Of a stretch of 64,000 nucleotides of DNA, positions 4,244 through 60,609 are shown piece after piece. Within the stretch, counting starts at the first letter, position 1. Each line of letters starts with the position of its first letter. The DNA is taken from the NCBI GenBank assembly GCA_036172245.1, contig JAYWIR010000031.1, positions 806,001-870,000 on the forward strand. The letters are read 5' to 3'. Source of the stretch: Raillietiella orientalis (Eukaryota). The position numbers were made by a program, and so were the translations under genes. A model generated the notes under the pieces. That model saw only the letters and a program-made list of their open reading frames with translations. It was not told the DNA's origin and ran no database searches.

Positions 4244-5653
4244 AATTTAAGCTTCTCCAGAGAATTGAAAGCAGATGAAGATTCTTCTGGCACTGGTGAG
4301 GATAGTATGAATCAGTTGTATGCAGAACTCAATGGCAAAGATGAGGTAACTGAAATAGAAATGAAAGAAGAGGAAGGAGATTCTCCTTTCCTGAAAGAGT
4401 TTTTGCAAAATAGAAAGGTCTGCCCTTCTTGCAAACGTGTGTTCAGTCGCCCTCGGGATACACTCCGTCATATGTATGGGACTTTATGTCGTAAATGTGG
4501 TGAAAAGGCTCCAGCTACACTTAAGTGTTTTGAGAGTCGCCATTTTGATGGCTCAAGTTTTTTGTGTAAAATCTGTGGGCAAAGCTTTGAGCTTAAATGT
4601 CAATTAGATCAACACATTGAAGCCAATTATCTTAATAGTGAAGGCCGTTATCAGTGCCCAAAGTGTGAGAAAAGCTTCAATATTTATGTGCTATTGGCCT
4701 ATCATTTTGGTATCCATGGTGATGTTGCTTATCGTCATTATCGTTGCTCCCAGTGTGAAGCAGCATTTACTTCCCCAACTGATCTTCGCCATCACATGCA
4801 AAAACATGAAGGTGGTTTTAAATGCAAGATTTGCCCTGAGCAGTTCCCCTCCCTGGGAAAGTGCAAACGCCATTTCAAAAACGAGCATTTTCCTGAGGAT
4901 AATAGCTGCGAGATGTGCGGCAAAAGTTTCTCATCTGCTTGGAGTCTTAAGCTTCACCTTCGTGGTGTTCATGCACAAGAGAAGCTGTATAAATGCAAAT
5001 CTTGCTCTAAGGAATTCGGTCATCAGGGCAATTTTCGGGAGCATATGGCTACTCACAGTGGTCGCAAGCGATTAGTCTGTGATATTTGTGGCTATATGAC
5101 CAACTTCAGTGGAAATATGTCAAAGCATCGTAAACGTCGCCATCTTAAACCACAAGCAGTTCGTACTGAGGAACAAACAACTGCAGTATCTGCTCCAGCT
5201 GCTCCAGTGCATATGAGTACAGCAACTGGTCAAACTGAGTTTCTGACACTGACCACAGTGCCCAGTGGAAGCACATCCCAGGTCAATGTGTATATGGACT
5301 CAACTGATGCCAACAACATTAAGTTGCTAGAGGCTGTTGACTTGGGTGGTGAACGGCCAGTCTACATTTGTCTAGAAAATCTTCAACAGCTACCCCTTTC
5401 ATTAGAAAATTCATTTATGAGTGCTGAGAGTTTGCAATCAGCTTTCGCATTAATAACCCCATCAGAAGACCCAAAAGATGATCAATCCACCCAACAAGAT
5501 TTGGCTACTTTAGCTTTGGTGAAGACTGAGGATTTGGATAAGGATTTGAACTTGTCTGCTTTTAAGCTAGAACTCGGGGATTTTGTTGATCCTCAGTCTG
5601 TAAAACTGGAAGAACCAGTTTGTATGGGACATGTGATTAGTGAATCACCTTGA
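4244..5653 (+). CDS. Coding exon 2 of the same gene: C2H2 zinc-finger array and acidic C-terminal tail (spliced product 670 aa)
   Basis: A long polypyrimidine tract ends in tag at 4243. Phase-0 joining gives ...NQNK|NLSFSRELKADED, in frame with ORF 4265..5653. Six canonical CxxC-x12-H-x3/4-H fingers (CPKC, CSQC, CKIC, CEMC, CKSC, CDIC) follow about three degenerate ones. Stop TGA ends at 5653. Confidence 0.93.
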   Translation, partial: NLSFSRELKADEDSSGTGEDSMNQLYAELNGKDEVTEIEMKEEEGDSPFLKEFLQNRKVCPSCKRVFSRPRDTLRHMYGTLCRKCGEKAPATLKCFESRHFDGSSFLCKICGQSFELKCQLDQHIEANYLNSEGRYQCPKCEKSFNIYVLLAYHFGIHGDVAYRHYRCSQCEAAFTSPTDLRHHMQKHEGGFKCKICPEQFPSLGKCKRHFKNEHFPEDNSCEMCGKSFSSAWSLKLHLRGVHAQEKLYKCKSCSKEFGHQGNFREHMATHSGRKRLVCDICGYMTNFSGNMSKHRKRRHLKPQAVRTEEQTTAVSAPAAPVHMSTATGQTEFLTLTTVPSGSTSQVNVYMDSTDANNIKLLEAVDLGGERPVYICLENLQQLPLSLENSFMSAESLQSAFALITPSEDPKDDQSTQQDLATLALVKTEDLDKDLNLSAFKLELGDFVDPQSVKLEEPVCMGHVISESP

Positions 5654-12000: not shown

Positions 12001-13288
12001 TTGAGAATGCACAAGCAGCAATTGGACGAGAATTCCAATTATAGTATTCCACCTGTATTAACAAAAAAGCTTTACATGAAATTCAGATTATTAATTAAAG
12101 TTGCAAGCATTTTACTGTGTTGATGGTAGATTATTAGATGCATTTTTCCACAGGGTTTAGGCTTTTTACGCGTCTAATGGATACACTTTTCTAGGCTCGG
12201 TTTCTTTGCTGGCACTATATCGAACGGCACCATCAAAGTGCATGACTGTGACCATCCACTTAGCCTTCGGTTCTCCTGCGCGTGGAACTTCTGCAGACCA
12301 AAGCTGAAAGCAAAGGAATACAAATTTACAAAAGACAGCAGAATACCTAAATCATGATCTTCACATCAAAGTGATTAGAGTGAATTATACATAGAATAGT
12401 ATCAAATGGGTTAGCATTAGACGACTCAATCTCGAAAATGAATATCAATTTACATTCTTACGAGACATCCTCTTTCGAAATGGATTGAGAGCACCAACAG
12501 CTATCTGTGTGTTGGAAATAAGAATGGCCGTGAATGGACCTCATTAGTGGACACTCGATAGTATGGATTACAGCCTCGCAACTTTTACTCGGGAAAACAC
12601 AAAACTTCAGTAGATAACTCAGTGAAAACAACTGGGAAGATTTTTTTTTTTTTTTTCAAATCTTTGTAATAGGATTTTCGATCCATCTTTAGCATTTCTT
12701 TATTTGTTTTTTATTTCTTGCTTTGATTGCCGGAATCACACTCCAGCTTGGCACTTGTGTTTTCAAAAAGCGCCACCAAAAGGTGAAATGATAATCCCAA
12801 TCATCAAAAAGAATCCTGCTTGCAACGAATAGAAATGATCTATGAAGACTAAGGAATTATACATAAGTAAGTATGCAAACCACTTACTCAAAATTTTCAA
12901 AATTTAATCTAAAATAACGACCATGTGCAATGCATGTCCTCGGCCGCAATGTCTAAATTTGCCTGCTCATTCGTTTCCCCATTTATCGGAAGTGTTAATT
13001 TATGGAAACTTCACAGTTTCGAAAGCAGCCATTGGCAGATCGCTTCATGCAATGGGAAAATTCCAACCCCCAATACGACTGAATAATGAGATGCTGCAAA
13101 AGGTAACATCAAATAATCCAGAAGCCAATGCTACCCTCAAAACCATACAGTACCAGCAAAAAATAAGACCGAAGTGAGACGGATCCAAGTCGCACATTGG
13201 AATGGTATTAAAAGTCCGAGAGCGTAGTCAGTAATCATCTAAGGAAGGGGAAGGAATTCGGGAACAACATCCATGTGTGGTGATACAC

Positions 13289-13363
13289 TCAGTTTCTGCC
13301 GGAGTGTTCGAACCCGCGACGCATGGTGCCACGCGCGGAAGTCTTAACCGCAAAGCCTCCGAC
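13289..13363 (-). mobile_element. Solo tRNA-like head of the SINE-like family (copy D)
   Basis: Close match to 54605-54680 (cagtttctgc.ggagt.ttcgaaccc.cga.gcatggtgccacgcgcggaag.cttaacc.caaagcctcc). The minus strand reads an A-box-like GCTTTGCGGTTAAG and a B-box GGTTCGAAC. Confidence 0.75.
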
Positions 13364-15529
13364 ACTATGCTGTAGGATTTTGCAAGGTGTTGTCTGCAGT
13401 GAAGTCGGTGCACAAAGCCAAGTTTGTCCAATAGGTCTTCACTCCGGACGTTTGCACCTCAAAGAAGAATATCATTGCCAAACTCTAGTAGGGAAAGCGA
13501 TGGTAATTTTCAGGAGCGTCTCCAAAATTCTTTTCTTTACGATAGCATTGGAATCAGCTGAAATCACATGTGCACACGTATGAATCCGACCGTGATGAAA
13601 TGGAAGATGAAACAATACGACTGTGTATTCAGATGGTAGAGCTGTCCGAACTGGAGCCATATCTGAAGGCGCCAAAGAGTAAAAAGGCCAAGTAATTGGA
13701 AAGCCTGCTTCCGAGTACCGAGAAGCTGTTCCTGCTGGAGCTCCATTGCTAATTTGCGCTCGCCGCATCTATGAAGGAAAACAAGGAAAAAAAAAATTGT
13801 ACACGGGAAAAGTGTAAAATAATGTGCAGACTTTTTGTTTTCTTTTTCACAAATTGCTGAAAAACTCATCTTGAATTACCAACTATCTATCTTGTAGAGT
13901 GTGTAATAACAGAGAAATAGTGAGGATGTTTCTTTACATATGGCACTATATTGCTGTGTGTGATAAGAAGTAGCTACGTCTTTCCCAGGCATAAACATAT
14001 GATTGCAAATCATGATTCTAAGAGCTCCTGTTAAACAAAAAACATGAATCCAGACAAAAAGCCGAAAACCTCGGGATGTTTATGATATATTTTTCGCAAA
14101 GCTGGCGGATAAATCCAAAGATTTAAATTTCACCCGCTTTCGGTTCAGACTCTCGATGAAGGAAAGTCTCTTACACGAAGTCTTTTGCGTTCTGAGGCCT
14201 TTTGAGAAATTTCAGAAAGGAATTTGGAAAATGTATGCTCCTTTTAAGCGAGAAATCACAGTTTCTTGGATCCCTTTATTTAAGGAATCTGCACATGCCA
14301 CTGAGATGGTTCAGAAAGGAACTAAGGTCAGTTTTTCAGTGGTTTTAATATCTCCCTGATAGCGGAGAAGATGAGTTTCCATTTTTCATTTTTGCAGAAG
14401 AGGTCTTTTTCTGGGTAAAAGTAATCAGAACCAAGGATTGTTTCCCATGAAGGCGATTGCAAATAGTGATTCTCAATCTTCACATGAATAGGCGGTAAGA
14501 AATTTCACCATGGGTGAAATGATGCTTTTGGGGAACCTAAAAAATACTCTCCATAAGTGACGAAGTACAACTGGCATCTTATTACGTAAGCTCTGAAGCT
14601 CAGAGATGACGGAAAATCACATGGTTTTAAGATGAGACGAGAGTCTATTTCTTAGGAGGTACCCGAAAGAGAAAACAGCAATAATTGGTTCAAGAAGATG
14701 TCATCGTGAATAAAACTACCATATACAACATGTCTAACAGCTCATTCAGTACTCGATATCAAATACCAACTTTGTATCATCTCATAGAATAATCTTTTAG
14801 AAAAGCAGTTTCTAAACACGTAATTATTCAGCTTCACTTTTAGAACGAGTATTAAGTATTTGCTGACACAAGTCAGCGAAGATACGATACGGTCACATAA
14901 TTTACCTTTAGAAAAGAAACTTACCTCATTGTGGAACCTCTGAATAGGCGTCCTCACGTAGAAAGAGACGAAAATTTGTCCATGGCGTCAGAATTGCAGT
15001 AAATGGAATGTTTGTGATGGCCGTCGAACGGAGCACAATCAGTCAAGCGCAAAGATATTGCATACGAAACTCTTGAAAGATTTCCTCTTCCAGGAATTGA
15101 ATGTGGGACCGTTTTGCGGTTCCTTCCTTCCTTTTTTTTTTTTTATTCATCGCGTCACTTTTGATGAATCCGTTTTCATGCAAATTTTTCACTTGCGGGT
15201 TGCTGCTGTTCCCATGCCGCTATGCGCTATGGACTGAAAGAAACCTTCATCGCCCGAGCGGCATTATCGAAATAGGTAATTGCATTAATACGAAGACGGT
15301 TTTTCAAAGACCTGTACCGTATGAATCTGGATTTGTATTTGCTCAAGGCATGTGGAAGGAATTCGCCACTTTCATCCAGAGTCTCTTTCCATACGAATGG
15401 AAAATGAACGCCACCGGATTGTGCGATGAAATGTGTAGCCTTCGAGATACGCTTATTTTATTAACAACTGAAGGTTTGTACGAGGGAGTAATTTTCAAGA
15501 ATCATTTCTCTCAGGTTAAATAAAAAAGT

Positions 15530-16680: not shown

Positions 16681-17974
16681 TACGTAAATCAAGTCTCGCG
16701 GGATGTGGATTTCACTTCTGAGTAACAACTGTGCATCAGGAAGTCGAAGACGTTTGAATTGAAATGGAAAAACAAGTTGCCGGGGATTTTCCTTTCCTGA
16801 TTGCAAAAAGATTCTCCTGATGCACGTTTGATGCGCGAGAGTTTTAGTGATATGTGGTCAAACGGCAAAATGAAGAGCAATCTGATATCATCACACTTAG
16901 AAGATGCTTATCAGGGAAGACCTCTTTCATTCTTGATAAGCAGCATCGGTGATGAAGACTTCAGCAAGGGGATCAAAAAACTGGCACCCATTTGCAATAT
17001 ACATTGACGGCATGATTAGCAAATTCCTTGATACCGAACTGAACGTGCATAAAAAATGGGACGTGCAGAAAACTTCACTCAAGGACTAAAAGATGTGACG
17101 TGTTCTCTCTACCAGATGTGGGATGCTGGAAGGGAATTCAGTCGATCTTCCATGGATACGCGTTTTCTTTTTTTTCAATATTTTTCAAAGCATCATCACA
17201 ATGTGAATGGTCCTTTGCAACAGCTAATGTGTGTGTCTGAGCAATCCGACCCTTTTTACTCTTCTCCGAAGAGACTACCTCTTATCCGTGTTTGCATTTA
17301 CGCGTGATACAGACGATGACACGTTCGCAGCACATCGAGGTCTCGGGTTCCAATCGACAGCGTGTCGTAACGTTTCACGAGGCTCCTCCATGTTTCACTC
17401 GGGCACGAGATAGCACGGGAGTTTCGCACATTCCTCCTTCCATTCGAAAACACCATAGAGGGGAAACGCCTCTGAAAAATCTGGCATCCCTGAGAGCTTT
17501 TCAAGCTACGAGTTGATCGTAGTAACGGATCCGCTACCCGCTTATAACAAGGTCGTTGCTGCGTGCACTATCAACTCACGTCCGGCATCATATCCCCCGA
17601 AGATCACCGTTCTTTTTCTTTTTTTCCTCCCCTCTTCTGATACGTTCTTTGAGCTCCGTATGATCCTTCGCCAATGCTCTCTTACCCATCACCATGGGTA
17701 CTCATTATTCTTGGCATGAGTGATAAACCTCATGCACAGTTATTTGTCCTGTTTCACGAAGGCTCCTCTTTGAGGCTTGCTTTGTTTTCAAATGGGATTG
17801 CTCTGCTTGCATGACCTTTTATTTTTTTTCATCTCGAAGGTCAGCAGCGTCCTAACGAGAGGGTCGCTACTATTGGCCTAGGACGACGGAAATCCTTTCA
17901 TCAGGGTTCGCCGAGATACTCAGGAACCGTACTTAGAAACGGGCCCTCGACGATTCTTTCACACTTCGGGAGGA

Positions 17975-18975
17975 CTGTCAGCCTCACCTGAGGGTGCGTA
18001 GAACTCAGACAGATCCCGACGGACCACCCCAATGGATGCAGCCCCCTTCTTCTCTGGCTCTTCCTCTCCTTGGATGCCTCCGAAGCGAACCTCTTCCTTG
18101 CCCTCCCCGACGGAAACTCCCGAAGGGGACCCGGAAGGGATTTGCTCTCGATTTCTTCTCTGGAGGGAACCCGCAAGAGAACTGCTGCTTCATTGCTCCT
18201 CTGAAGATCTCTCCCTGAAGGGAACAGCATGCTCCCAGTACTCTGGAGAGGCATTCATTTCTCCGAGAAAGGTTAACTAGCTCCATGGTACGCGACAGAA
18301 TGTCTCCCCGAGGGGAGGGTCGATCCCATTTGCACAACTGGGGGTGGAGGGGAGTCCTGAATGGAACTGCCCCCCCCTTGGTTTCTGGCAGGACCCCGGA
18401 CAGTCAACTTTCAATCTTGGCCAGTCAACTGAAGTCCAAACTGAAGGACGGATCGACTGCGCTCCACATTGCCTGCAGAAGAAACAACTGGCGACTCGTA
18501 AAGCTTCTGGTTGGCTTCCAGGCTGATGTGAGCGCCAAGGACGCCAATGGGATCACCCCCCTTCAGATAGCTACCCTACAAGGGAACCTCAAGCTCATGA
18601 AACTCCTCTTGGATTGCAAGGCGGAAGTGGATGCCATGAACTGTCTCGGAACGACCGCGCTTCATATTGCTTCTGCCGATTCCGGGAGCTCACTGGCAGA
18701 ACTGCTTCTGCAGTACGGAGCGGATGTCAACGTGAAGAGGACGCTGGACGGATCGACTGCACTTCACATTGCTACAAGCGGCAGACGGTTTCTCGCCAGT
18801 TCCGCACCCAAAATATAGGCCGACCAGAGCTATCCTGTGGAATTGGAAAGGAGGGGAAGAGGAATCGAAACGCATTTCCCATTCTCGGCGCCGCCTCTTC
18901 CCCGGGCGGGATTCGAACCAGCGACGATTGGTTTCGCGTGCGGCAGCCGCAGCCACGCGGCTGCCATACGCAGGC
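17975..18975 (-). mobile_element. SINE-like GC-rich repeat, copy A, interrupted by an ankyrin cassette
   Basis: Body motifs shared with copies B/C (atttcttctc.ggagggaacccg, agctccatggtac, catttgcacaac). A tRNA-like head at about 18869-18975 has a minus-strand B-box GGTTCGAATCC and aligns with 22474-22580. Confidence 0.7.
18285..18818 (+). CDS. Ankyrin-repeat ORF (3 full repeats and 1 partial; 177 aa) whose termini derive from the surrounding repeat
   Basis: DGSTALHIAC...LVKLLVGFQADVSAKD, NGITPLQIA...LMKLLLDCKAEVDA, LGTTALHIA...LAELLLQYGADVNVK and DGSTALHIA, with no internal stops. The domain call is secure, but functional gene status is uncertain. Confidence 0.7.
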   Translation: MVRDRMSPRGEGRSHLHNWGWRGVLNGTAPPLVSGRTPDSQLSILASQLKSKLKDGSTALHIACRRNNWRLVKLLVGFQADVSAKDANGITPLQIATLQGNLKLMKLLLDCKAEVDAMNCLGTTALHIASADSGSSLAELLLQYGADVNVKRTLDGSTALHIATSGRRFLASSAPKI

Positions 18976-20721
18976 TCGTCAGGGCATCTCCCGTCTCCCT
19001 TTTTTACGTTCCAGGACCGAGCTGTGGACAAGTTTCTATAGATTATATACAGGGATCATAAACTTGCTCCCCCTAAGAGTGACGACGTCGGCTCCCAAAG
19101 CCAACACCGCGTGGCTTTTTCATCGAACTCTGTTCCCCCCCCCACCCCTCTTCCCCCATTCCTGAAGAAACGTCCCTCGAGAAGGTCATTCGTCTTCCCC
19201 GTCGCTTAGAAGAGGGGGGCAACTCGTCCTCATCCAACGGGCACATCCCCAGCTCCAGCCCCGCCACTGGGAACCGGCGCGCCCTTTCGCCGCGGGACCC
19301 GGTGTGGGGAGGACCGGAAAAAGTGGGGCGAAGCTTCTGATCGGTCGAAAGTCCGCGCCACGTCACTCTGCGGAGGCAGAGCGTGCCGAAATGGCGGTAG
19401 GTGGTCCCTCCGAAGCGGCCCGCCCCCTCAGTGAGCCCAGCCGAGAGCGAAATGCCCGAGGTCGCTGGCAGGTTTCCTTGAATCGCAGATCCTGGCGTTG
19501 TCTTTCCTTGATAAGCAGTGAATTTTCAGGACGCTCCGTCGGGAGTACCGTTTCTGGTTCTTCCGGAACGTTTCCTGAACGATGCAGCTCCCTTCTCCGT
19601 TTTGCTGGTCAATGGCGGGGGATTCCCGGAAGACCCCCACTCCCGAGAATTCTGTTCTTGGAGACCACGAGGTGCTCACGAGCTTGAATGGGATCCCCGC
19701 TACAGAAGCCCCGGGAATCCCCTCCATTGCCAGCTGCGTTGCTCTTCTCTTCTCCGGAAGCGTGCAGAGGCTCTCGGGAACCTCACTGTAAAAAGGGGAG
19801 GAAGGAGGGGTGACCTCCGTGACCGAAAACGAGGAGGGTCGGTGCACGCCAGGGACCGAAGCATGCAACGACCATCGGGCGTTGGGGGGGGGGGAGGTTG
19901 AGTCGGATTCTCGAAGGCCTTTGCGGAAGAAAAAGATGGGTCAGTAATCTCGGGATGCCCGAAAAGTTCTCTCCAGCTTCTGTTTTCCCCCAACCCTTCA
20001 GGGAGAGTTTAGGCGAGCATTGGTCTGGATGGCCTTCCGGGAAGACTGCTGCGAAAGTGAATGGCAGCAAGGAAAACGCAGCCGAGTTTCTTACATTTCC
20101 CGAAGCTCCCGTGCCGGAATTTTCACAATTAGAGGAACCAAAAGGAACGACCTACCCCACCACCACCACTGGGGGTGGAACAAGGGAGTAAGAGGGAGGA
20201 TTGGTAAGTCAGTATGGAGGTGGGCGGCCCGGCCTCATCTCAATGAGCATGAATTCCCGAGTTGGCAAGGGTGAGGAAGGAGGGCAAAGGGGATCGGGTA
20301 TGCTCCCTGGCTTCGGGTCAATCTGCCCACAGCCCCTTGCACTTCGCATTCCAGACCGGACCGCTCCCAACGCTCTCCGCAAGCAAGCGGTGACTGATCT
20401 CTGGCTTCTCCGTGGGATGGAGGTTGCATCCACCTTTCATTCGTACGCGACCACCACTTCTCGTACATAGAGGAGGGTCGCTACCGAGGGGGAGAGCGGT
20501 AAGCCTCGGAGGCGAAACGAATCTTTTGTTCAGCCTGCCGATCATGCCTGTGGCACCTGACGAAGAGTTCCCCCTACCCCGTAGTGGGTGCATTCCAGGA
20601 TCCTCGGTTCTTCATCTCGGAACAAGGGCGCTCACGGAAGGACTCCGTGAGCGCCTGCGGCAAGCCAAGCATGACGAGTTTCAGTCTGAGGCGGTGTGCG
20701 AGTCACAGGCACTCGGAGACA

Positions 20722-20749
20722 CTCCTCGGCCCTTTGGCTAAGATCAGAG
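20722..20749 (+). pseudogene. U2: 5' fragment of U2 snRNA (3'-truncated)
   Basis: ctcctcggccctttggctaagatca matches the conserved U2 5' end CTTCTCGGCCTTTTGGCTAAGATCA at 23 of 25 nt. Similarity stops before the GTAGTA branch-point pairing motif. Confidence 0.75.
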
Positions 20750-21274
20750 GTCACTTCGGTTCACGGACTACCTCCCCATCCGTGCCGACGACTCATCTTC
20801 TCTTCCTGTGCGTGAAGCGGCCATGGATTCACCGGAGGATTGCTCTTGTGGGAGATGTGGACTGCAGACTCGCATGCGAGAGCCGCTGCACGAAGCATTC
20901 TTTTTAGGCGCGCTGCCAGGCGGGATGCCACCGCAGGAAGCCTCCGCGATACCTCTACCGTCACAGCAGGATGGAAGATGATGTCAACGAACCAGCGCGT
21001 CCCCGGAGCAAGAGCACACCGACTTACGTCCGGAACCGACAAAGGCGACCAGAAGGGCGACTGCCTGGCAATGCTGAAAGTTGTCTGCCATTTGAAAATG
21101 AAGAGACGGCCTTCAGCCCTGCCAGGCACCAAAAGAGGATCCAAGGATTAAGGCATTGCCCTTTCAGATGAATCGAAAAGGATCAACAGCGAGAGTCCAC
21201 GCCTCTAGAATTGGTTCTTTACTTTTTGGAGGCTCGCGTAGCTCTTTAATACTGTTCCACGCCAGCGAGAGTGC

Positions 21275-21790
21275 TCCCCAACTCTTCAAACTGGGGGCAC
21301 CCAGCAGGGGACGACCTTATGAATCCAGGAAGGGACTCCGGAGGAAGGAGGCCGTTCCTCTCCCCAAGGGAGTCTCTTGCTTATTTCCTCCGGAGGTTAC
21401 CACATGATTATTTCTATTCCGAAGGGAACCTAGAAAGGATCCTCTCCTGGAATTTCTGCTCCGGAGGGAACCCGAAACTTTGTTTCCTCCTCTGAAGAGA
21501 ACCCCGAAGGGACGTCTCCGAATTTTTTCTAAAGGGTTACTACCCGAAGAGGGAGCAGCACACTTCTTCACACTCTGAAGAGGTATTGATCCATCAGCTC
21601 CATGGTACCAAATGGAATGAGTTCCCCCCAAGGGGCGGAGGCGGCGTCATTTGCACAACCAGGGTGGAACCTCGAAGGTAACCGGCTCCTTGATTCTGAT
21701 TCCTGAAAGGATCCTAGAGGGTCGACCTCCAGTCCCGGCCATTCATCGGGGGCGTCCGGGGGTTTCCGGCTTTCACCAGTGCCACCGTCT
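21275..21790 (-). mobile_element. SINE-like GC-rich repeat, copy B body
   Basis: tttctattccgaagggaacc.agaaaggatcctctcctggaatttct.ctcc.gagggaacccg is nearly identical to about 54077-54140. ttcatcgggggc.tccggg is shared with about 54499. Confidence 0.85.
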
Positions 21791-22290
21791 TCAGAGTGCA
21801 CTACAGGCGCTCGGCGCGTTCCAAAGAGGCATGCAGGAATGGGCCGTGGTTTGGAGCGCCTTCGTGTCCCCTCCTTCTCCCCCTGATTTCTGTTTGCCCC
21901 CCTCCATGCAGCATTAGAAAGCGGACGAAGGACCTCCTACGGATCGTCCTCTGGGGCAAAGGGAGACCCGGAGTCCGCCTGAAAGACTTGTGCGCCCCCC
22001 TCAGGAACAGTGGCCCAGACCTCCTCCTGACGCTGGAGCAGATGGAGATGCAGCTCTAGCTTTAGACAATTGTCCTCGTGGCAAACCTCTGGAGCACCAC
22101 CTGGTTCCAGCCTACACGTGTCCTCGTCCGAGAAGCCTCCAGAAGGGTGGGACTCGCGTCCTTCCTTGCGTGGCCGTCCACGAAGTCTCATCCACTGAGG
22201 ACTGCATCTTCGGCAGGCGACCAAGGAATTTTTCAATCATAGAAGGATTCATCCAGAGGGACTTCTCGAGCTCCATGCAGGATGCTTAGT
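21790..22290 (+). mobile_element. Internal fragment of an L1/Tx1-type non-LTR retrotransposon ORF2 (post-RT/thumb region), decayed
   Basis: With a frameshift it reads AVVWSAFV/CPLLLPLISVCPPPCSIRKRTKDLLRIVLWGKGRPGVRLKDLCAPLRNSG, matching the L1-clade PP...FLW.gkrp.v....L..P...GG segment. Stops follow. Confidence 0.6.
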
Positions 22291-22404
22291 TCAGGTTTCA
22301 TTGCATTTACTACGTGCGTCTCTGGTAAACAGGAGGCTTGTGAGGTGGTGGAATGAACGACAGCCTGTTAATTTTTTATAAATAAATGTCCTGGCGTGAC
22401 CGGG

Positions 22405-22580
22405 TGTCAACCAGTGTCACCTCACCCCAATAGGAAAACCAGCTTCATACTGCGAGGAAAAAACGAAATCCACGACGCACTCCCCATTTCTCGGCGTCGA
22501 CGCTTTTCCGGGAAGGATTCGAACCCGCGACGCTTGGTACCACGAGCAGAGACCTCAGCCACGCGGCCTCCAGCGCGGGC
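22405..22580 (-). mobile_element. tRNA-like head and linker of the SINE-like family (probably the displaced head of copy B)
   Basis: The minus strand reads GCCCGCGCTGGAGGCCGCGTGGCTGAGG...GGGTTCGAATCC. It aligns with 54556-54685, including caaccag.g.cac and acgacgca. Confidence 0.75.
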
Positions 22581-41096: not shown

Positions 41097-43664
41097 CCGG
41101 TAGTGTGTTCAGTTTCTTCTTCCGTGTTTTGATTTCAGCCAAAAGGTCGAGAAGCGATCTTAGTCACAAGACTTTTTCTTCTGTGCGGAGGGTTTGGTCC
41201 GTCGGGGTCGCATCTCTGTATGTATGGGGAAGCCTCCAAGAGAAGGGGAGTGCTCTCTGCACGGCGAGGCGAGACGATGCAGTTTGCCTTCTCAGCAGCC
41301 TCTTTGGAAGTCAATACGTGGCGGCAGGGGGTGGGAGATGCGAGGAACAGATTCTGGATTCTGGCTTGCCATCAGAGCTGTGGCCCAAGTTCTCTTTGCG
41401 AGCGCTTCGGGAAGCCGTCGCTGCGTTCCTCGGATGCTGTGAGGTAGCTGAGAGGAAGCAGCTAGAACACAGGAGCCTTCTCTGACCAGAAACAGGCGGA
41501 TGGTTTGGGGTCACATGGGATCTGAATTTCGAAGGGAGCGGGGTACCCGAAGAGGACCCAGCCTATCAGCGCACCGGCGCGGAGAATCCGAGTGGGCTAA
41601 AGGGACGGTCCTCATGACGGATTCGGCTGCAGCGGTTTGGAAGTCTTGAACGTGCCATCGTGGTCTGCAAGAAACACCGTTCGGCGATGCAGTCCAGAGT
41701 TTGAGGTGACTTTTCGCTTCCCTTCCTCGTGAGAACAGGCCGACGCATTGGGGAAGGCCCTCCTACAGTGCTTCCCGTACGCTTCCCGTAAGCTGCAGCA
41801 CGCGCGCCAGGCTGCTCATGCTCGGCATCCTGAAAGTTTTCGGCTGCTGCGCGGCTCGTGCGGAGCCGGTGCGCGACCCGTCGACCTATGGTTTCGCTGA
41901 GCGGATGCAGCGCCCGGGATCTTTGTGCCCTGGGCGTACAAAAAACGGCGTGACTGCTGGCTCTTAGGCGCGCGTTCTCAGCTGCTTGCAGATCGGCCAG
42001 CGTGCTCGACGCCGCTGGTGGAGAAGGACTCGTCCTCCTCCGCGTCCAGGAACGGCCACCTCCGCCAGTACCGAGCAAAGAACTCGAAGTCCCGGTCTCG
42101 AAGTTAATTGCCCTGCTTGCAGACCGCTTTGAGAAGGGCAGCTGCTTCCGGGTCGTCCCTCGGAAGGACCGAGGGTTCCCAGGGAGTGAAGGGAAAGGCG
42201 GAAGGGAGCCTCTCGCTCCGAGGTGTCCGGGAAGCAGCGTGCGGACGGCTGCTGGAAGTTCGGTTCCTTCTTCGCTCTCCTCGACGGTTCCGTCGCTGCA
42301 CATCCCGGTGGCCGCGGGCACATGGCCGTCCGATCCCCGGAAGGATTTCTGCTACGCGAGCTTATCGCCAACCTTTGTGACTTGGCACAGGGATCTGCGA
42401 CTCGATCCAAGGTTGCCCGCCCGCTGTCCATTGTTCCCGGAACGCCGGAGGAGTTCCGGGAAAGAGAGCAGGAAGAGGGATCAAAGAGGAGAGCTCGCGA
42501 GGCAAAAGAGGAGCCTGTGCGCGCCATCGAAGATCGACGGGGTCCTTGCATTCTTGCTTCGTCGAGGGAAAAGCAGGAGGAGGAGGAGAACTGGCCGATG
42601 GCATCGGGAGGGAGGCTAGCGGTGGGCCCCCCTGGCGCTTGCGGTTTTGGTGGCACAGTGCCGCCGGCCACGTCACGTACTTCCACGGACGACGGTGCTT
42701 TTGCTTCCGCGCGAGAGGATTTGGTCCGTCGAGGTCGCATCGCCCTCAACGTTAGCGCAGCAACGGCAGATTCCGCGTGGGAAGAATTCAACTTCCTTAC
42801 CCTGCCCTCCTCCTCCTCCTTCTCCTCCTTATACTCCACTTCCTTGCTGCAAGGGCGCAGGAAGGGAGGACAATGGCAGCCGTGCCGGAGAGCGCGCGTC
42901 CTTCGACGGCGGTCGGCGCGCCTCTAGCGGAGGTCTCCGGCATCAGACGAGCGCTCCCTCGCTGTCAGACCCTCTCGAGCGAGAGGGGAGAGAGCCAAGG
43001 GGCCAGCCTCGCTGCTGCCGCATGCTGCTGCGGGCAGGAGCCTTCGTCGTACCAGGAAGAACCTCAAGGAAGGAGGGAACGAGGAAGGGAGCGGTGACTC
43101 GGGGAGGGGGGGAGGACAACCGAAGAATGCCAGGACGGTTGTTTCCTTGCCTCGAGGCAAGGATGGAAGGTCCGCTACGCTACGGCTGCTACCGCAGCCT
43201 TCCCGAGAGACCTTTCACGCTCCGCTGCTTCCCTCGGCTGCGTTGCGTCCCCCTTCGCGGAACCGAGGCGGCGCTTCCGTCAATTCCAGAGGCTCCGCGG
43301 TCGCCTAGTCAACCCAAGGTTCGGCGGTGGCTCCCCCGCCGAACCTTGGTGGCTTCGCGCTGTCTCGACCGCTGGCGTTTCCCTCGGCGGAGGCCATTGA
43401 GGCGACCTGGTGCGTAGCGAACGGTGGCTGTCCGGGTGTGCCAGGAAAAAAAAAGCGGTCCGCGACCACCTTCGAGTCCCGCCACTTCCTCGGCGGCGGT
43501 TGTTCCGCCGCCGGGGGCGCGGCTGCCTCGTCCTTCGTCATTTTCTCCGGCAGCTGCATAGCGACGTCAGTGGTTCTTCCCTTTTCCGCTTCGGGCGCTC
43601 CTTGCCCTCTTCGCTCCTGCCCCTTAGTGGATGCCACGTCTGCTGCCTGAGGCGCTACAAGTCT
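41097..43664 (-). other. GC-rich, coding-like low-complexity region (possible decayed or fast-evolving exons)
   Basis: Long overlapping ORFs on both strands, a minus-strand acceptor near 43664 and a donor gtaagt near 41096. In-frame stops interrupt plausible frames. No domain recognised. Confidence 0.2.
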
Positions 43665-44216
43665 CTGGAGCGAATGCGAGGGATGGTGCAAAGATCAGCG
43701 CCCTCGCTCACGCCTTGGAGACGGAAGAAGAAAAAACACACACACTCTCTCTCTTTCTCCGTTGCCAAGAGCGGATCGTTCCTCTTTCCTGCTTCCTCTC
43801 GCTCGCTTTCTTCGTCTTCCTTCTCCCCACGGCAAAAGCAGAAAGACACCCCTACAGCCACCCCATCCGGATAGCCAATCCACCACGAGCTCAGCTTCCG
43901 GGGAGCCCTGTCTGGGGAGTCTCGCGTTCCGACAACCGCCCTGAGGGGTTTATTGCTGCTTGTCCTCGTGGCTGCGCGTGGCAGGAGAAGAGCACGCCAA
44001 GTGACCAGAAGCGGTGGTGGCAGAGAGGTACGGTCCGTTCTCCGGAAAGCGCCTGCTCGCCCCCGGAGCGAGCACCACCCTTCCGTCCCCCGAAGGCAGG
44101 AGGAGGAGGAAAAGGACGTGAGGGTGTGGGCAGAGCGAGTGACCACCGTGGGGTGGAGAGGGGATCTTCTCTTCCTTCCTCGTTCTTCCACTCTACCCTG
44201 TTTTTCTATTTCCCAG

Positions 44217-44891
44217 GAGTCGTCTCCAGAGGACGCATCCTCGCAAGCGCTCACCGGGCCGGCTTGGGACGGCCCGGAGCAGGGATGGAGAACCAGCACC
44301 TCCCCCTTGGACGAAACGCAGAGCGAGACAGCATGGACTCGGAGCGAGGAAGGAGAAGGGGAAGACTCCGCGAGACGTGCCACCACCCAGAACAGTCAGG
44401 AAGAGGACGCCACCACCGCCACCCCTTCGCAGGCGTGCGAGTCCTGCGGAAGCAGCGCCGCCGTCCACGGGAGCAGCCGCGATGCTCGGAGAGGCGAGGA
44501 GGAGGAAGAGGAGGAGGAGAAGGAGGATCAGCAGCAGCTGGGAACACCGCAGGATGCTTCCTCCCGCGGGCGATCGGACGGCCCCCCGGATGAAGGGGCA
44601 GTGGACGGGGAGGAGGTCCTCCCTGAGGTCGTGGACGGTCTCCAGGATGTCATCGTGGATGCCGGTGATGGAGACGCCAGCATTCGGATCTCCTCCTCGT
44701 TCGTAACCTCCGGTGACCACCTTTCTGTGACCTCCCTGAGGCACTCAGAAGACCTGACGGCGACCAGGACCCTGTCGAACACGTTTGGAGGGAGCGGCGC
44801 GGGAGACACTGTGGCCAGAATACCCACGATGAGGTCAGTCGAAATGGCGAGCTGGAGGGTGGTCGCCCGGTCAACCGCAGGGAGGACTTAA
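44217..44891 (+). CDS. Possible exon encoding an acidic Ser/Thr/Glu-rich low-complexity segment
   Basis: Strong acceptor ccctgtttttctatttcccag ends at 44216. The open frame ESSPEDASSQ...GEEEEEEEEKEDQQQ... runs to TAA at 44891. No domain or start identified. Confidence 0.33.
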   Translation, partial: ESSPEDASSQALTGPAWDGPEQGWRTSTSPLDETQSETAWTRSEEGEGEDSARRATTQNSQEEDATTATPSQACESCGSSAAVHGSSRDARRGEEEEEEEEKEDQQQLGTPQDASSRGRSDGPPDEGAVDGEEVLPEVVDGLQDVIVDAGDGDASIRISSSFVTSGDHLSVTSLRHSEDLTATRTLSNTFGGSGAGDTVARIPTMRSVEMASWRVVARSTAGRT

Positions 44892-47149
44892 TTGCTGCCC
44901 TTGCGGGTGCTCCCCTCCCCACACTTCCCGGGGAGGGGGTGCGTCCTTTCCGCGGACCCCCTGACGCTGAACGCATCCCATCCGTCCGGAAGGGTCCGTC
45001 GGGATGCTCGCTCCCGACTCGCTGTCAGGAACGGGACTTTCCTTTTCCTTGGCCGAGGCCACTCCATTTTCGTTGTCCGGAGAGAACCGTTCCTCGCTCG
45101 CTCTTCCGCTGCTATCTGCCACCGCTCCTGGACTTCCGGGAACCTCTGAGAAAGCGGCTTCCCTCTAAGCCGACGGGCCGGACTGAAGACGATTCTGCGA
45201 AGGGCGTCTCGTGGGACATGAGCAAACAGGGAGGAAGGGTCACGAGTGCATAGGAGGAAGGAGGGGAAGTTGCCTGTTTAAGAAATGCAGCTGCTCTTCT
45301 CCACTGAGCTGCTTGTTCTAACGGTTTCTTGTCCTCCCTCTGGTTTCTCATTGTTCATCTGGTTTCTGGTTCTTCATCTGGTTTCCCGTTGTTCGCTCGG
45401 TTTTCCATTCTTTACGTGACACTTATCGTGGTTTTTGTACACATAACGACCGAAAATTCAGTACCATCTATTTCGGATCTTCAGGGAAATTGCGTATATC
45501 TATTTATCAGCATGGACGACTACTCCAGCGCACGGCACATCAACTGCCTTTGATAAACATAGCCACGTTTGTTGAAAATCCAAGAGAAGGAAGTCACATT
45601 CGTGCCAAGAAGGACTGGCAGGTGCATTGAGCTTAGCCTGTTCCACTTCCTTGATCAGACCTGCAATCGGACTTCCAGAAAATCACTCTCACTTGGAAAG
45701 TAAAATCAAACGGATAACACCATGGACGGATAAAACGGAGGTCAAATAGGAAGGTGTTTGCAGGGTCTATCTCTGTGGGACCTTCATCGTGGGTAGGCTT
45801 CATGGGAGAGTTAATTCGACCGAGTCAGTCCATCTGATCCCAAACACCGGCTACTGGTGTCTCCACTAAGACGCGAACACAAACCTGCGAATCCCAGCTG
45901 GGGGAATGGGGGATCTCTGTCTGGCTGCTACTACCGACAATGTTTACAGCCCTTCCATCCAACATTCCTTCAGAAGAATCCTCAGTGCGGAACCCTAACT
46001 ACCATTTTTGGTCCATGACTATCATGGAATCATACAGTCCTTCCATGAATATCATTCTTGGTTCTTCATTGGAAGTTTGTTTTGAAGCCAAGGTTTCTGG
46101 AAGGGCAGTCGGATGAACATGGTCGAAGCCCTTCTAATCACTTTGGAATCGTTGACTTCTGTTCTGAAGTCAGATTTCTCGCTTTCGTCATGTCACTGAC
46201 GTTATTGAAAGCTAAGAGAAACTATGATTGCCGCCTGAACGTGCGAACAAACATCGTAATTTTTTTTTTAAATGATTTTTTTTTTTTATTGAACTGTGGA
46301 ATCAAGAAAGTCATCGTCTAAAAACGAAAGAAAAGAAAAAGCCACCAATGGCCGTAGTAAATAGCTGTGAAGGATTTGCTCGACCAACAGCTCGGTCCTG
46401 GATGGACACTCTTGTGAGAAGAATATTTTATTTAAAATAAGATTGCTTACGTCAGTATCACAGTGGCTCTCTGATGCTTTCAGCTCACACGTCAACTGTT
46501 GGTGGCAGATGTCTGTTTGGATTCCCGAGGAAGAGTGCAGTCGAACGGATGTGCTTGCACTGGTTGGCAATAAATCTGGCTTTTTTCGGAAAAGCTGTAC
46601 GTGCTCAGCAAAGAGCATTCTCCCGTCTGCCGGCTTCCTCGGAAATCACGCAGTCAGGGTTACCACTCCTCCTCCAAATATTCAGGAAGATCGTAATTCT
46701 TTCGGGAGACACATTGGCTACATCGAAAGGGGAGGAAAAGTTCATATGTTTCAGCAGTTCAATCTCCCATTTCTCCGTCTGTAGTTTCCACTTTGTAGAA
46801 TCCTTTCCCCCAAAAGATGTTTTTCATGATGAGGTCATCGTAAAAAACAACCTGTCGACCGTCTAGCAACACAAGGCGATTTTTCTTTGGTTTCTTGAAT
46901 GTTTGGAGGTTCATTTTGGGACGGCCAAACTCGCAACCGAAAACCGAATGCGGTACCGAAAATTATCAAGGGAGAGTAACTGTCAGCCAACTCAATGACT
47001 TCAGTGCATGCATTTACCCGTTAATTATTGGTACTCTAAGTGCATTTCATAAGTCATGTCATGATTCGATCTGCAGAGATGCTGCGATCTTCACAAACTG
47101 CGATGCAAAGATCAGCGCGAATCTGGTTCAGATCCCGAAAGATCATCAG

Positions 47150-49195: not shown

Positions 49196-51425
49196 GTCAG
49201 TCGACTTTTTGCTAATTATACGAGAAGACGAAAATTCATTTTTTAAATGCATCCATTTGGTTGAAATATCAGATGCGGACTGTATTATCAGGAACGATGT
49301 GATTCACTGTACATTAAACTTAGGCGTGAGGTGGGTTTTTGTACTTAGCTAAACTCGCGAATGCAGATAACTTAAATTCTCCTCGACATTTTTGTGCCGA
49401 ACACAGAAAACGTACCCTTCCGGTCTTTGAAGCCTTCATCAGAAGCGCAAAACAGAAGAATATCGAGATTGAAAGCATTCGTTCAGGCATCTCCAGGGAG
49501 TTGATGATTACAAAGACACTGGAAAGTAGTAGGGAAACTCGTAACTCCGAACTACTACTGTAGCAAGGTTGAATCGCTGTTCCTGACTTCTTGAATCTGA
49601 GAGTAAATGGAATGATTTTCGCCTCGGTCTTATTCCAAGGAAGTGAAGGAAAAGTATGACAGCTATTATTAAGAAATATATATTCGAAAGCTCATGCGAA
49701 AAGATAAGGAGGTCTTTCAGGACACTTGAAGATTTTAGAAGTTCGCAGAGTGCTATTGCCCTTGGTGAAACTTCAGAGGCTTCTTCAGCTATCAAGCACC
49801 TTATACTCTGTAGAAGTGCCAAACTTCTCGAGCATGCTCTCTCACGTAAATGGTACACTTCTACAGAGTGCGTATGCACTTCGCTTAGAATTCAATTCAG
49901 GATCGAAAGCTTCTGTGTATCCAGAAGGATTTTCTCCCTAAATGTCATCATTATGGGGCATTCAAACCCCAAGACAGCCACTGGTTTAGAACTCAATTTC
50001 TGCAATCCTGTATCTTGAAACTTTCGTGTACGCAATAGCTCCGTGTGCCTTTCACCTTCCTCTAAACTCCTGCAGGTGCTCCGCAGGTGTATCAGAACTG
50101 CTTGTAGCAACCCACAAGGTACACCCAATCTAAGCTTGAAATTGCACCCAAAGTTTCATGATGTAACAAGGGAAGCCTTTTGCAACCAAGGAGGACGCAG
50201 GACTGAACCACGTTCCGTCTTGTGACGTTCGCATCTGCAGCGCATTTAGTGCATTTGCTTGCTGCTCCAGCAGCACTCAACAGCTCGCTCTTTTCCTTTT
50301 TCTGCTAGCTTTGGCACGGAAGCGAGAAACTAGGAAAACTACACCACACCAGAGCTACTGCCACCAAGGAAACAACCGTTCCGAGTGAACGGGCAGTGAC
50401 TACACGAAAGGTGTTGCAATAGGAAGAATCCGTTTTTCCTCTCCCTGAGCGTCATCCGCGACTGAAGTAGCCTGCAATTTTACTCGAGGATGGAACACCA
50501 GACGATGAAGGCTGAGTCTGCTGGAGCCACCATGATTTGTGCTTCGTGCTAGCTGTCTTTGTTTGTTTCAAGTGTTTGGGATCGGACGGCGGGGTTTCAG
50601 TGGCTAATTCTTTGCTATGATGGTGCAACACGTGAGCTAGCAACTTTAAGGCGATCGCAAGCAACACCAGAAAGAAGCACACTAGGTTCCTTGAAACAGC
50701 AATACAGTGATGCATAATTTCGAGCTCTTCGGCATTCACTGTTATATCCAGGATCCGGAGGGATGTTTTAGGAGATCCAAGGGCACTGAGTAGACAGTCA
50801 GCGGATAGTCAAGGAGCTCAGTTCTCATTTTCGTTTTTTTTTTTTTGTTTCTTATCGTAGTTCGCAAAGTTTTTGAACCGTCAGATTCATAAGATCACCA
50901 CTTCCGTATTTATCTTTTTGTTAAATGTGTGAAAGGATGCCAACACAGTCATTGATCTGTTACTCCCCTTCCGCTTTGTCTTCCTTTCCTCCTCTTCTAG
51001 TTTTTCTTTTTTTTTTAAAAAAAAAAAAAAAAAAAACGCATAAGGACGATGAGTAGCAAATTAGTAGTTGCAATTCTCCAAAATGCAAAAAAGGATGGTA
51101 GGGTGAGAGATATAATGGAAGTAATAGAAGATAGCATCACACACAAACAAAAAAAGTGCAGCTACTTTGGGTACATGAATAGGTCCCCAGACATGCTAGA
51201 AGCTGCAGGTTCTGGGAATCCTGTAAGCGCATCTTCAATTCTAGTGTTTCAGACTTCCAGCAGCAGAAGTGCTTCTGGCTGCAGACGCTCCACCCGTAAA
51301 TTCGAATCAAATGAATCAATTCAAATCACATTCGAATCAATCACTTTTTGTGCAACAAGGAAAACGAAAGGAGGCCTCGTGCTTCAGAGGTTTCGAACTC
51401 CACGGTGATTTCACCTCAATTCCAG

Positions 51426-51608
51426 ATCACTGCGTGATAGACGGGAAGCGGTACAGCAACGGCGAACTGGTCGTCAAGAAAGACGCATGCACCATCTGTC
51501 GCTGTTATTTGAGCAACATCCTCTGCCAGAGAACGGAGTGTCCTCAAACTCCTGAAGGATGCAAACCAGAATTTCAGGAAAATTTCTGCTGCCCCGTTTT
51601 CATATGCG
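51426..51608 (+). CDS. von Willebrand factor type C (VWC) domain exon
   Basis: Acceptor tttcacctcaattccag (an alternative in-frame acceptor exists at 51260). DHCVIDGKRYSNGELVVKKDACTICRCYLSNILCQRTECPQTPEGCKPEFQENFCCPVFIC shows the CxxCxC and CCPxxxC VWC signatures. Donor G|gtaatg. Confidence 0.88.
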
Positions 51609-51658
51609 GTAATGACAGATGACCTGATGACTCGCTAATTATGAGATACTTCTTTCAG

Positions 51659-52101
51659 ATAACGATACCATCATAAATAACAAGAACGTAGATTCTCTGC
51701 CTAAACTGAAGCCAATAGGAACAACAACTCTCAAGCAGCCGCACATCTTTGTGAACAGTGAACCTTCCTGGCACCCGCAGGCTCTGAAGCCGATTCGTGC
51801 TCCCAATCTGAAAGTGGTGCCCGCTTCACCAGAGAAGATGAAAGTGATCACTTTCGTGCCTGCCAAAGCTGTCACCGCGTTTAAACCTTTCACGGTGGCG
51901 GAGAGCACGAAGGCACCTCCTTCTACGAAACCTCCATTGATGAGTCTGAGCAATTCGCTTTTCGATTCTTTTAAAACATCCGGATGCCTGATTTACGGAA
52001 GGACATACCGAGTGGGAAGGGTCATCAATGAACTGTCGGGACCATGCAAGGAATGCAAGTGCACAAACATTGGTATTTCCTGCTCGGCCACGAAATGCTA
52101 A
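51659..52101 (+). CDS. Terminal exon: Pro/Thr/Lys-rich linker and a C-terminal half-VWC module
   Basis: A 50-nt intron with a ctaat branch site and tctttcag acceptor keeps phase 1. The frame ends GCLIYGRTYRVGRVINELSGPCKECKCTNIGISCSATKC*. Confidence 0.85.
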
Positions 52102-53869
52102 GAATCCTGAAGATCGAAGATCTGCAAAACTACAGCGGTTTCACATTAAAATGAAGGCTCGTTTGTTTGACGGGAGAAACGAAGGGGGTACTCACATTCC
52201 GTCTGAAATGGGAGAGACGAAGGGGCGGAGTCTTGCCCTGATGTCTCTTTACCTTGAAATGACAAAGAGTTCGAAATAAATCTTGCCTTGTGAGCTTTAA
52301 TCCTCCTCCCCCAGCACTTGAGTGTCGCTTCATTTTATTTCTGTATTTCATCGCATCTAAGTGACAACTAGAAATTCTCATCCTTGGAGACTCAGCTTTT
52401 GCGCTCCGCAGTTCCAGGATCGAAGGAAACGGAAGAGAGGAAGATCCCAAAGTGCCACCTCTTTTTGCAACTTGATATGAGTGGGAAGTGCCTTGCGATG
52501 CGCCCTGCAAGAGCCCATCTCCTTCTACGGTAGGTAGTTCCATGTCACCTCGTTGCCAGCCAAACTCAAGGAGTGCATCTGTGTGTAGACGCTTCTTTTT
52601 TTTTCTTCTTTCTTCCTAACGCCTTGCCTCTAAACACTGCAGCAGCCCAACAAAGTTTCTAAATCTAATTTTCCGTTTAATCGAGACCACTGATCGAAGA
52701 AGCGCCATCATTGCGTGCTGCTAATTCGCGTTAGTGCACAAATGTTTGGCTACTTCCAGTTTGTGAGAGATTTCGGAGCAGCTTTCCGTTTTTGACATCG
52801 ACTCGTCATGGAAACACAATTTCCAGAGCGTGCCTTAGAGAACGGTCACTCACGAACCACAATTCTCTGCCTGAGCTGATCCACCAGTCCTCGAAGAGTA
52901 GGATTGTGGATCCAAGATGCTCCTGGAGTGCAAATGGTGCAAGCTTTTCATTTCGGCATGAAGCTGTAGCTTCTGCAGCTTCAGACTGGAACAAACAAAA
53001 AAATTCCAGGCAGAAGATTCACGGTTCACAGCGGTGGTGATGTTCAAATAAAAAATCATCTAACAAGCCTGCATTGCATCTTGAAAGCATTGTCTCCCCA
53101 GATTCCACAAGATTTCAGACAGGGAAAATGATTTTCAATACCATATAATTTTTTTTTTAATATATAAATGGCCTGTAGGGACCTCACGGGGAGATCGTTA
53201 CTGTTGCCTAGGATGATTATCACCCGATTATGCTGGGGCATTTATTATATGAAGCAATAAAAATACATCGGTATGGTAGAATCCTTAGTTCCACTTGCCG
53301 AAGAGCGACGCGCAGATCGGCTAGATCCGTTTTGAAAGCGTGGGGGAAGGGAAAACAAAAGCAAAAAAATAAAAAAAACAGGGGAGAAGGATTTATACAC
53401 GGGTGAGGAGGGGAGAGAGGGAGGAATCACGGCACGCTTCCAGACGTCCTCTGCATCCTGTTCAGGATGCTGGCAAGTTTCGATAGTGTTCAGGTGAGGA
53501 TCTCCAGGCAGTCTTCAGGAAGATCCGCCCACGTGGATGGCGTCCCTGCCATTTCGGCCTCTTCTTCTGGAGTTCCAGGCCGCCATGATCCTGCAAACGA
53601 AGCAGAGAACTGCAAGAGTCGCGGTGAGTCACGGGCGAGGAGGCGTTTCAAAATGTCCCTGGAGCCTCCCACTGGGGTTCCTAAGGTTGTTGAGAAACGA
53701 TCCCCAAGGATCGAAGGGAAGAGCAGTCCAACAGCAGGTGTGGGAGGGTCTCCTTCCCGCACCTGCCACACTGAGGTGTGCAGTGCTGAAGGCGCGCTTT
53801 GCGCAGGATTTCACCATTCAACACCAGCAAAGCTACAGTTCCTTACTACGGTCCACTCCACCCGATGGT

Positions 53870-54685
53870 GCGTGTCAACTCTTTAGGATTGAGGGTACCT
53901 CGGGAAGGAAGCACCCTGTGAATCCAGAAACGCGTCGGGGGAAGGAGTCCGTTCCTCTTACGCTTGGGAGGGAACTCGGAAGGAAACCCTCGTCCTGGTC
54001 GTCTCCGAAGGCAATCCCAGAGAGAACCTCTTCCGTATTTCCTTCAGATAGGGCACTCCGAAGGAATTCCTCCTCGTTTCTATTCCGAAGGGAACCCAGA
54101 AAGGATCCTCTCCTGGAATTTCTTCTCCAGAGGGAACCCGCAGCTTTGCTTCCTCCTTTGAGGAGAACAGAAGCGTCCCTTCGGGGTTCTCTGAAGAAAA
54201 CCCCGAAGGGACGCTTCCGAAACTCAGAAGGGGCTCTGTAGTTTCCCGCAGGGAATCGCTCAGGCTTGCTTACTTGCACTCTCTGGAGAGGAGGCGACTC
54301 GGAGGGTCCCCCCCGCAACAGAGGAGGATCCGCTCCTTTAAACAACTAGAGAGGTGCCCGTGAGGGCTCCTGCTTCATCTTGAAACCGGAGGGGTCCCCC
54401 GGTGAGGGGGGCCCTCTCTCCGTTGCACGACCGGAGGGGGAACTCCCCACTCTTTGATTCCTGGGAGGACCCGAAGGTCGACTCCCATTGTTCCGACCTT
54501 CATCGGGGGCCTCCGGGCTTTAACCGCTACCGGTGCCACGCCCGGATGTTTCGGCCAACCAGCGCCACTGCAGGAGAAACCCGGAACCCAACGACGCAGT
54601 GGCGTCAGTTTCTGCAGGAGTATTCGAACCCACGATGCATGGTGCCACGCGCGGAAGCCTTAACCACAAAGCCTCCAACGCGGGC
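53870..54685 (-). mobile_element. SINE-like GC-rich repeat, copy C (uninterrupted: tRNA-like head, linker and hairpin-rich body)
   Basis: The head reads GCCCGCGTTGGAGGCTTTGTGGTTAAGG...GGGTTCGAATAC on the minus strand. The body is collinear with 21275-21790 and 17975-18437. Confidence 0.85.
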
Positions 54686-60600: not shown

Positions 60601-60609
60601 TTTCTGTCG

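Follow-up and report, generated by a model that had tools for sequence, protein, structure and literature searches.

A 5'-truncated LINE fragment probably accounts for the split copy of a SINE-like repeat in Raillietiella orientalis

In a 64,000-nt stretch of Raillietiella orientalis DNA (hereafter, the window), one copy of a dispersed repeat (copy B) is split by a segment of about 600 nt, raising the question of whether this split is a property of the repeat or the mark of an event that befell this copy. The first-pass annotation, made from the letters of the same stretch, had proposed that the linker between the body and the head of the repeat is an insertion or template-switch hotspot and that the family acts as a shuttle for different cargos. 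The present analysis, in which copy B was compared with the other repeat copies of this one window, points to ordinary transposon nesting: copy B is very likely an older repeat copy that was later hit in its body-head linker by a truncated, antisense LINE of putative L1/Tx1 type (Table 1).

Copy B belongs to a dispersed, non-coding, SINE-like repeat family of ~0.7-0.85 kb, with its sense on the minus strand. Searches with find_repeats, blastn and nhmmer recovered three copies with body and head (A, B, and C) and one head alone (D), and the nhmmer body and head profiles detected no additional body or head within the 64-kb window. The three complete copies end at ~21240 (B), 53837 (C), and 17961 (A) on one side and at 22580, 54685, and 18975, respectively, on the other. 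The family is SINE-like in that its copies are dispersed and non-coding, the order of head and body is fixed, and all three bodies share one orientation. The alternative raised in the first-pass annotation, that head and body are separate families only occasionally adjacent, is disfavoured by the nhmmer results, as a head in the same orientation adjoins every body (3/3); a single head among four (13244-13374), however, lacks a body. The head carries the motif GGTTCGAAYCC on the minus strand (GGTTCGAATCC at 22516-22526 in copy B, as read from the sequence), called box-B-like here for its likeness to the box B consensus, and the strand of this motif identifies the minus strand as the sense strand of the repeat. 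It is the sole tRNA-like feature visible, which falls short of a tRNA-derived head; ARAGORN predicted no tRNA gene in the window, and Rfam gave no matches at the gathering score across the window and, for the B and C heads, none up to E 1. The body profile also gives matches on the strand opposite to the repeat body (E 9e-8, 9e-5, and 0.004; 53956-54255 and 18092-18234), and within C, 54170-54217 shows 92% inverted self-similarity, indicating that the body is made of palindrome-prone units. Exact-pattern scans with two conserved stretches of the repeat returned no matches in viral contigs and none in genome contigs.

Table 1. Coordinates of the repeat copies, the LINE fragments and their junctions (positions are those of the window).
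Feature	Position	Strand	Evidence and remarks
Copy A	17961-18975	minus	nhmmer, alignments
Ankyrin-coding insert in A	~18430 to at least 18772	sense on plus	Pfam Ank matches in ORF 18219-18815
Copy A linker and head	from 18796 at latest (= B 22411)	minus	nhmmer, alignments
Copy B	21240-22580	minus	nhmmer, blastn, alignments to A and C
Copy B body	21240-21786	minus	positions 1-615 of the nhmmer body profile (E 8e-159); aligned to C by blastn and local alignment
Left copy of probable target-site duplication	21775-21786	plus	ACCAGTGCCACC; find_repeats, 12 nt at 92%; aligns to C 54529-54540
LINE fragment in B, 5'-truncated, ~623 nt	21787-22409	plus, antisense to repeat	end of ORF2, decayed C-terminal region, 3' UTR and tail
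ORF2 remnant downstream of RT domain	21856-22170	plus	tblastn of P0001; two in-frame stops
LINE 3' end in B	22381-22410	plus	AATAAA, then non-poly(A) tail ending in CCGGGTGTCAA
Right copy of probable target-site duplication	22410-22421	plus	ACCAGTGTCACC; find_repeats, alignments
Copy B linker and head	22410-22580	minus	E 1.8e-46 with the nhmmer head profile; aligned to A and C
Copy C	53837-54685	minus	uninterrupted at B's insertion site; blastn, nhmmer, alignments
Copy C motifs	54529-54540; 54558-54568		first, single target motif; second, paralogous sub-repeat
Copy D	13244-13374	minus	head and part of linker, without body; find_repeats, nhmmer
Second LINE 3' fragment	60592-61768	plus	different family, same tail; outside any repeat copy
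B-C block 1	B 21240-21361 = C 53837-53958		70% identity; blastn, colinear
B-C block 2	B 21411-21502 = C 54077-54168		91% identity; blastn, colinear
B-C block 3	B 21697-21785 = C 54455-54539		75% identity; blastn, colinear
B-C block 4	B 22514-22580 = C 54619-54685		78% identity; blastn, colinear

Elsewhere the window is animal-like in content, with a C2H2 zinc-finger ORF, VWC-domain exons and an ankyrin fragment (Pfam). The zinc-finger ORF (4244-5650) is 469 aa long and looks intact, and the VWC-domain coding pieces lie at 51245-52098; both are probably host genes, and a search with the zinc-finger ORF returned generic matches only (<=35% identity). Two further regions gave no Pfam or LINE match: 41500-45300 (58-63% G+C), where long open frames of up to 338 aa overlap on the two strands and inverted arms rich in GAG/CTC lie at 42807-42847 and 44494-44534, and 18990-21240 between copies A and B (~57% G+C), with many overlapping open frames.

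The interruption of copy B itself was confirmed by comparison with copy C. Blastn, local alignments, nhmmer and MAFFT revealed that the match of B to C stops at 21785/21786 and resumes at 22410, and the ~623 nt in between (21787-22409) are missing from C. No second copy of this 623-nt insert was found by blastn elsewhere in the window.

The insert is a remnant of a LINE ORF2, and the first-pass annotation had named its kind rightly, as evidenced by phmmer and tblastn homology to an RT-bearing protein (P0001). When 1.84 billion representatives were searched exhaustively by phmmer with 21790-22056 as query, two matches emerged, the better of which (E 4.7e-17) was P0001, a protein of 619 aa with an RVT_1 domain at residues 125-396 (Pfam). 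When P0001 was searched against the window by tblastn, its residues 436-539 matched 21856-22170 with 59% identity over 105 residues (E 3e-28); the match begins only at residue 436, downstream of the RT, placing the truncation at the 5' side of the element. Pfam gave no match on the ORFs of the insert (150 of the 152 window ORFs of at least 100 aa were searched, the set leaving out 61454-61885 on the minus and 61455-61898 on the plus strand), and searching the window with the insert in six frames by tblastn yielded nothing convincing (best E 0.007). Long relatives of P0001 numbered 243, the best 120 of these 243 at <=30% identity, and they carry APE (PF03372), RVT_1 and zf-RVT domains (two checked against Pfam). 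This APE/RT/zf-RVT architecture is seen only in such distant relatives, and the fragment in B itself has neither RT nor endonuclease; the L1/Tx1-type assignment, which draws on the domain architecture of distant relatives, thus appears right as to kind. The first nucleotides of the insert (21787-21855) have no significant protein match and are assigned to the LINE by position only, so that its 5' boundary is set by the duplication described below. With its stops and its decay after 22170, the fragment is dead and has no present function. Seven loci distantly related to P0001 were found in metagenomes; by tblastn, six of them are 22-35% identical to it and the seventh reaches 61% over 28 residues, and neither the repeat nor the LINE tail occurs in any of the seven. 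No P0001-related locus was found in viral contigs.

At its other end the LINE in B runs to the duplication with an intact 3' end, the final A of its tail being countable either with the tail or with the duplication. The same ending closes the second LINE fragment of the window, which was recognized by a match to P0001 residues 533-589 (tblastn, E 6e-6) and a zf-RVT remnant (Pfam). A tblastn search of the window with 120 long LINE relatives matched 61073-61276 inside this second LINE and revealed no third LINE fragment; a match of these relatives on the zinc-finger ORF (4478-5008) was read as an artefact. The second LINE lies in unique sequence, its tail being AATAAA ... CCGGGTGACAA, and the copies of a 15-bp target-site duplication lie on either side of it (ACTACYGAATAGTGT; 60577-60591 and 61769-61783, 14/15 identical or 93%; find_repeats). 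In both fragments AATAAA is followed ~20 nt later by CCGGGTGWCAA, a motif with exactly two matches on both strands of the 64 kb, namely the 3' ends of the sole two LINE fragments found. The 35-nt tails of the two LINEs aligned with a score of 28, compared with 10.5 +/- 2.2 in shuffles (0/2000 reached 28), whereas the insert and the second LINE as a whole did not match significantly at the DNA level (24 vs 21.6 +/- 2.3 shuffled), the likeness being confined to the tails. Since the second LINE carries the same tail and a duplication of its own at an unrelated site, the tail can be assigned to the element. An exact-match scan of both strands showed the tail motif to be absent from the 3' end of the repeat.

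The junctions of the insert are framed by two motifs that are identical at 11 of 12 positions and lie exactly at the two homology breakpoints. The first-pass annotation had equated them with two adjacent sub-repeats of copy C. Both of these C motifs exist (54529-54539 and 54558-54568), but the equation fails, as local alignments and MAFFT place both B motifs on the first of them; the second aligns by MAFFT to B 22438-22451 and A 18823-18834, and in all three copies the second motif follows the first at a spacing of 28-29 nt. A single motif of the repeat is therefore present twice in B, exactly at the breakpoints, with both occurrences mapping to one motif in C, which argues for a target-site duplication, (A)CCAGTGYCACC; this is very probably what the framing motifs are. 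Because short direct repeats are common here (find_repeats listed seven such families, 11-14 nt long, in the 711 bases given to it) and CCGG sub-repeats are abundant, the argument rests on position and colinearity with C and not on the repeat alone.

The insert thus combines ORF2 homology, a 3' end held in common with a second LINE, a truncated 5' end, and a duplication at its junctions, and 5' truncation with an intact 3' end and a duplication is the standard outcome of target-primed reverse transcription. As the duplication belongs to the LINE and lies inside the repeat, the LINE arrived after the repeat copy was in place. To the observed identity and orientation of the LINE, its common tail, its duplication and its absence from C, established non-LTR biology would add the mechanism of reverse transcription as well as the positions and order of the nicks. 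The sense strand of the repeat would have been nicked at ...CACTGGT^GAAAG, and reverse transcription would have been primed at the 3' tail of the LINE RNA itself (AATAAA ... CCGGGTGWCAA, no poly(A)); an early stop would have left only the last ~623 nt of the LINE, and a second nick 11-12 nt away would have produced the duplication (A)CCAGTGYCACC. In its truncated 5' end, intact 3' end, junction duplication, and decayed ORF2, the LINE in B resembles ordinary nested 5'-truncated members of the L1 superfamily, from which it differs by a fixed non-poly(A) tail, CCGGGTGWCAA, in place of an A-run.

Copy A is likewise interrupted, here by an ankyrin-coding piece. Its body stops at 18429, which is profile position 580/615 (nhmmer) and corresponds to B 21745, and alignments put the insert 0-30 nt from the site in B, in keeping with the earlier estimate of a few tens of nucleotides. 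No duplication flanks the ankyrin insert and no LINE tail ends it, and ~6-35 nt of the repeat were lost with it. Because of the missing duplication and tail and this small loss, the ankyrin piece is best read as a separate kind of event from the LINE in B, for example a repair patch. Templated patch insertions at repaired double-strand breaks are similar in being internal gene fragments with no duplication or tail and a small loss of host sequence; the likeness holds for copy A only, as copy B has the hallmarks of retrotransposition. A search for the parent ankyrin gene returned generic ankyrin proteins only (the best 120 of 6560 at 32-45% identity). The head of copy D is 91% identical to that of C (find_repeats) and covers head profile positions 46-175 (nhmmer, E 9.6e-29). 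Its left boundary is firm at 13244, and a possible extension to the same motif at 13148 is borderline (p 0.05). A linker-only profile built from A and B recovered neither D, leaving this extension unconfirmed, nor even copy C, the linker being too diverged for a profile test. The linker of D looks closer to those of A and B than to that of C. The AT-rich left flank of D matches neither the repeat nor a LINE (LINE p 0.29-0.91).

These neighbouring breaks bear on the proposal that the linker is an insertion hotspot. Part of that proposal stands, in that an insertion lies at the body-head linker of B with a second, unrelated insert ~0-30 nt away; its generality does not follow from a single LINE-in-repeat case. 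By our own estimate, two inserts would land by chance as close together as 30-45 nt on an ~800-nt repeat with a probability of ~1/10, and the breaks in A, B, and D are possibly three within ~80-100 nt, which is suggestive at best. The junction in B lies ~80-105 nt from the head core. From the positions of these breaks, a locally favoured insertion site at the linker is possible.

A more specific reading, which we regard as tentative though by no means far-fetched, is that the linker motif is the preferred nick site of a repeat-homing LINE lineage and that this nick also gave rise, as by-products, to the breaks in A and D. Consistent with it, the right junctions of B (22410/11) and A (18796 at latest), and possibly D (13148, p 0.05), fall on the same repeat coordinate, while the left sides differ between copies, a pattern that priming of reverse transcription at a fixed nick would produce; moreover, of the window's two LINE fragments, one lies inside a repeat that covers ~3.5% of it, and the LINE tail bears a weak likeness to the target. 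Against it, there is a single LINE-in-repeat case (n=1), and the second LINE, which ends in the same tail, has an unrelated target. The linker of D is left unconfirmed by the profile, and the left flank of D is not LINE-like (p 0.29-0.91). Furthermore, when the 26 nt at 18770-18795, immediately before the motif in A on its left side, were compared with LINE tails, no match emerged (p 0.72, 0.99, and 0.74); they include 18778-18795, which is assigned to neither the ankyrin insert nor the linker. The 26 nt share 11/15 bases with B 21752-21766 in the left flank of B (p 0.13; against C, p 0.98 and 0.45) and may be native repeat sequence, in which case the junction of A would move 10-30 nt away from that of B.

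With respect to the tail, its last ~12 nt appear to resemble the target weakly. The tail in B compared with the right motif of B gave an empirical p of 0.009 and with the motif of C 0.012, and the tail of the second LINE (~61 kb) compared with the motif of C gave 0.042; these are the three of eight comparisons with p < 0.05, the remaining five lying at p 0.11-0.86, and two of six comparisons with longer tails reached p < 0.01, all of these tests having been chosen post hoc. GTGWCAC, the core of both the LINE tail and the target motif, is nearly its own reverse complement (22397-22421; 61756-61768), which makes the orientation of the likeness ambiguous. The resemblance could equally reflect a SINE-LINE tail relationship or mimicry of the target. 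The fullest version of the homing reading, in which (A)CCAGTGYCACC would be the fixed nick site of a homing L1/Tx1-type LINE whose non-poly(A) tail mimics the target, and reverse transcription or repair at that one nick installed the LINE in B, the ankyrin piece in A and perhaps the replacement of the body in D, is unlikely.

More improbable still is an origin of the framing motifs within the repeat, according to which they would be neighbouring sub-repeats of B, the LINE would have inserted bluntly between them, and 'GACCGGGTGTCA' would be repeat spacer and not LINE tail. CCGG-rich sub-repeats fill the repeat, so that a short direct repeat could be native, which counts against a duplication; copy C does have two such motifs 29 nt apart, MAFFT also aligns the tail in B to repeat sequence upstream of the motif, and this tail resembles the left flank of B (p 0.003). 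However, the register that this origin demands requires a 29-nt gap in C, and the same tail ends a LINE lying outside the repeat copies. In forced global alignments of B, the first-motif register outscored that of the first-pass annotation in all four gap settings (44 vs 12, 26 vs -3, 19 vs 5.5, and 8.6 vs 7.6), and it was favoured in 4/4 settings for A as well. A tiny LINE-tail insertion between the two motifs of C was also considered and rejected, A and B having the same second motif at the same spacing of 28-29 nt.

Least credible of all is the cargo shuttle, in which a cargo would enter the linker by template switching and then travel with the repeat: empty, ankyrin-filled and LINE-filled linkers do occur within one window and both cargos read on the plus strand, but the duplication surrounds the LINE piece inside the repeat and not the composite, each cargo is present only once in the window, both are antisense to the presumed transcript of the repeat, and the ankyrin piece has neither tail nor duplication, so that the shuttle is left unsupported. 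In composite retroposons such as SVA and LAVA, the foreign segment belongs to the unit that transposes and is present in every copy. Copy B is similar to them as a non-autonomous repeat with a foreign segment inside, whereas its segment is single-copy in this one window and has a duplication of its own around the cargo, which sets it apart from a composite retroposon.

The nested LINE in copy B may also be set beside LINEs with known target preferences. In Kojima 2015 (PMC4494074), Tx1-clade LINEs are described as preferring fixed positions in other transposons: crocodilian Tx1-Mar families lie in Mariner-N4_AMi, around position 240 and in the opposite direction, Tx1-8_Crp and Tx1-4_AMi lie in LTR elements, and Tx1-9_AMi lies in Harbinger, a LINE being counted as target-specific when one kind of sequence makes up >20% of the flanks of its family (PMC4494074). 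The LINE in B is similar in being a putatively APE-type LINE antisense inside another mobile element, and differs in that its host is a SINE-like retroposon instead of a DNA transposon and that a target preference is not evident within the window, where one of two LINE fragments lies in the repeat. A LINE targeting a SINE goes unmentioned in the titles and abstract openings that a narrow literature search on Tx1 and target-specific non-LTR elements returned, which is no proof of novelty. If the preference for this repeat held genome-wide, the LINE would be a further case of the Tx1-like kind, with a retroposon as host.

In summary, the annotation of copy B is corrected, its split being a dead LINE insertion with its own duplication and not a property of the repeat. 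On its own the finding settles no open question, and the mechanism is ordinary. Should the site preference be confirmed, it would provide a short, testable target sequence together with a tail that possibly pairs with the target, and if it held genome-wide, a retroposon-type target would be added to those of LINEs living inside mobile elements. If the fullest version of the homing reading were true, the repeat copies would constitute landing pads across the genome, at which fragments of host genes are captured as well.
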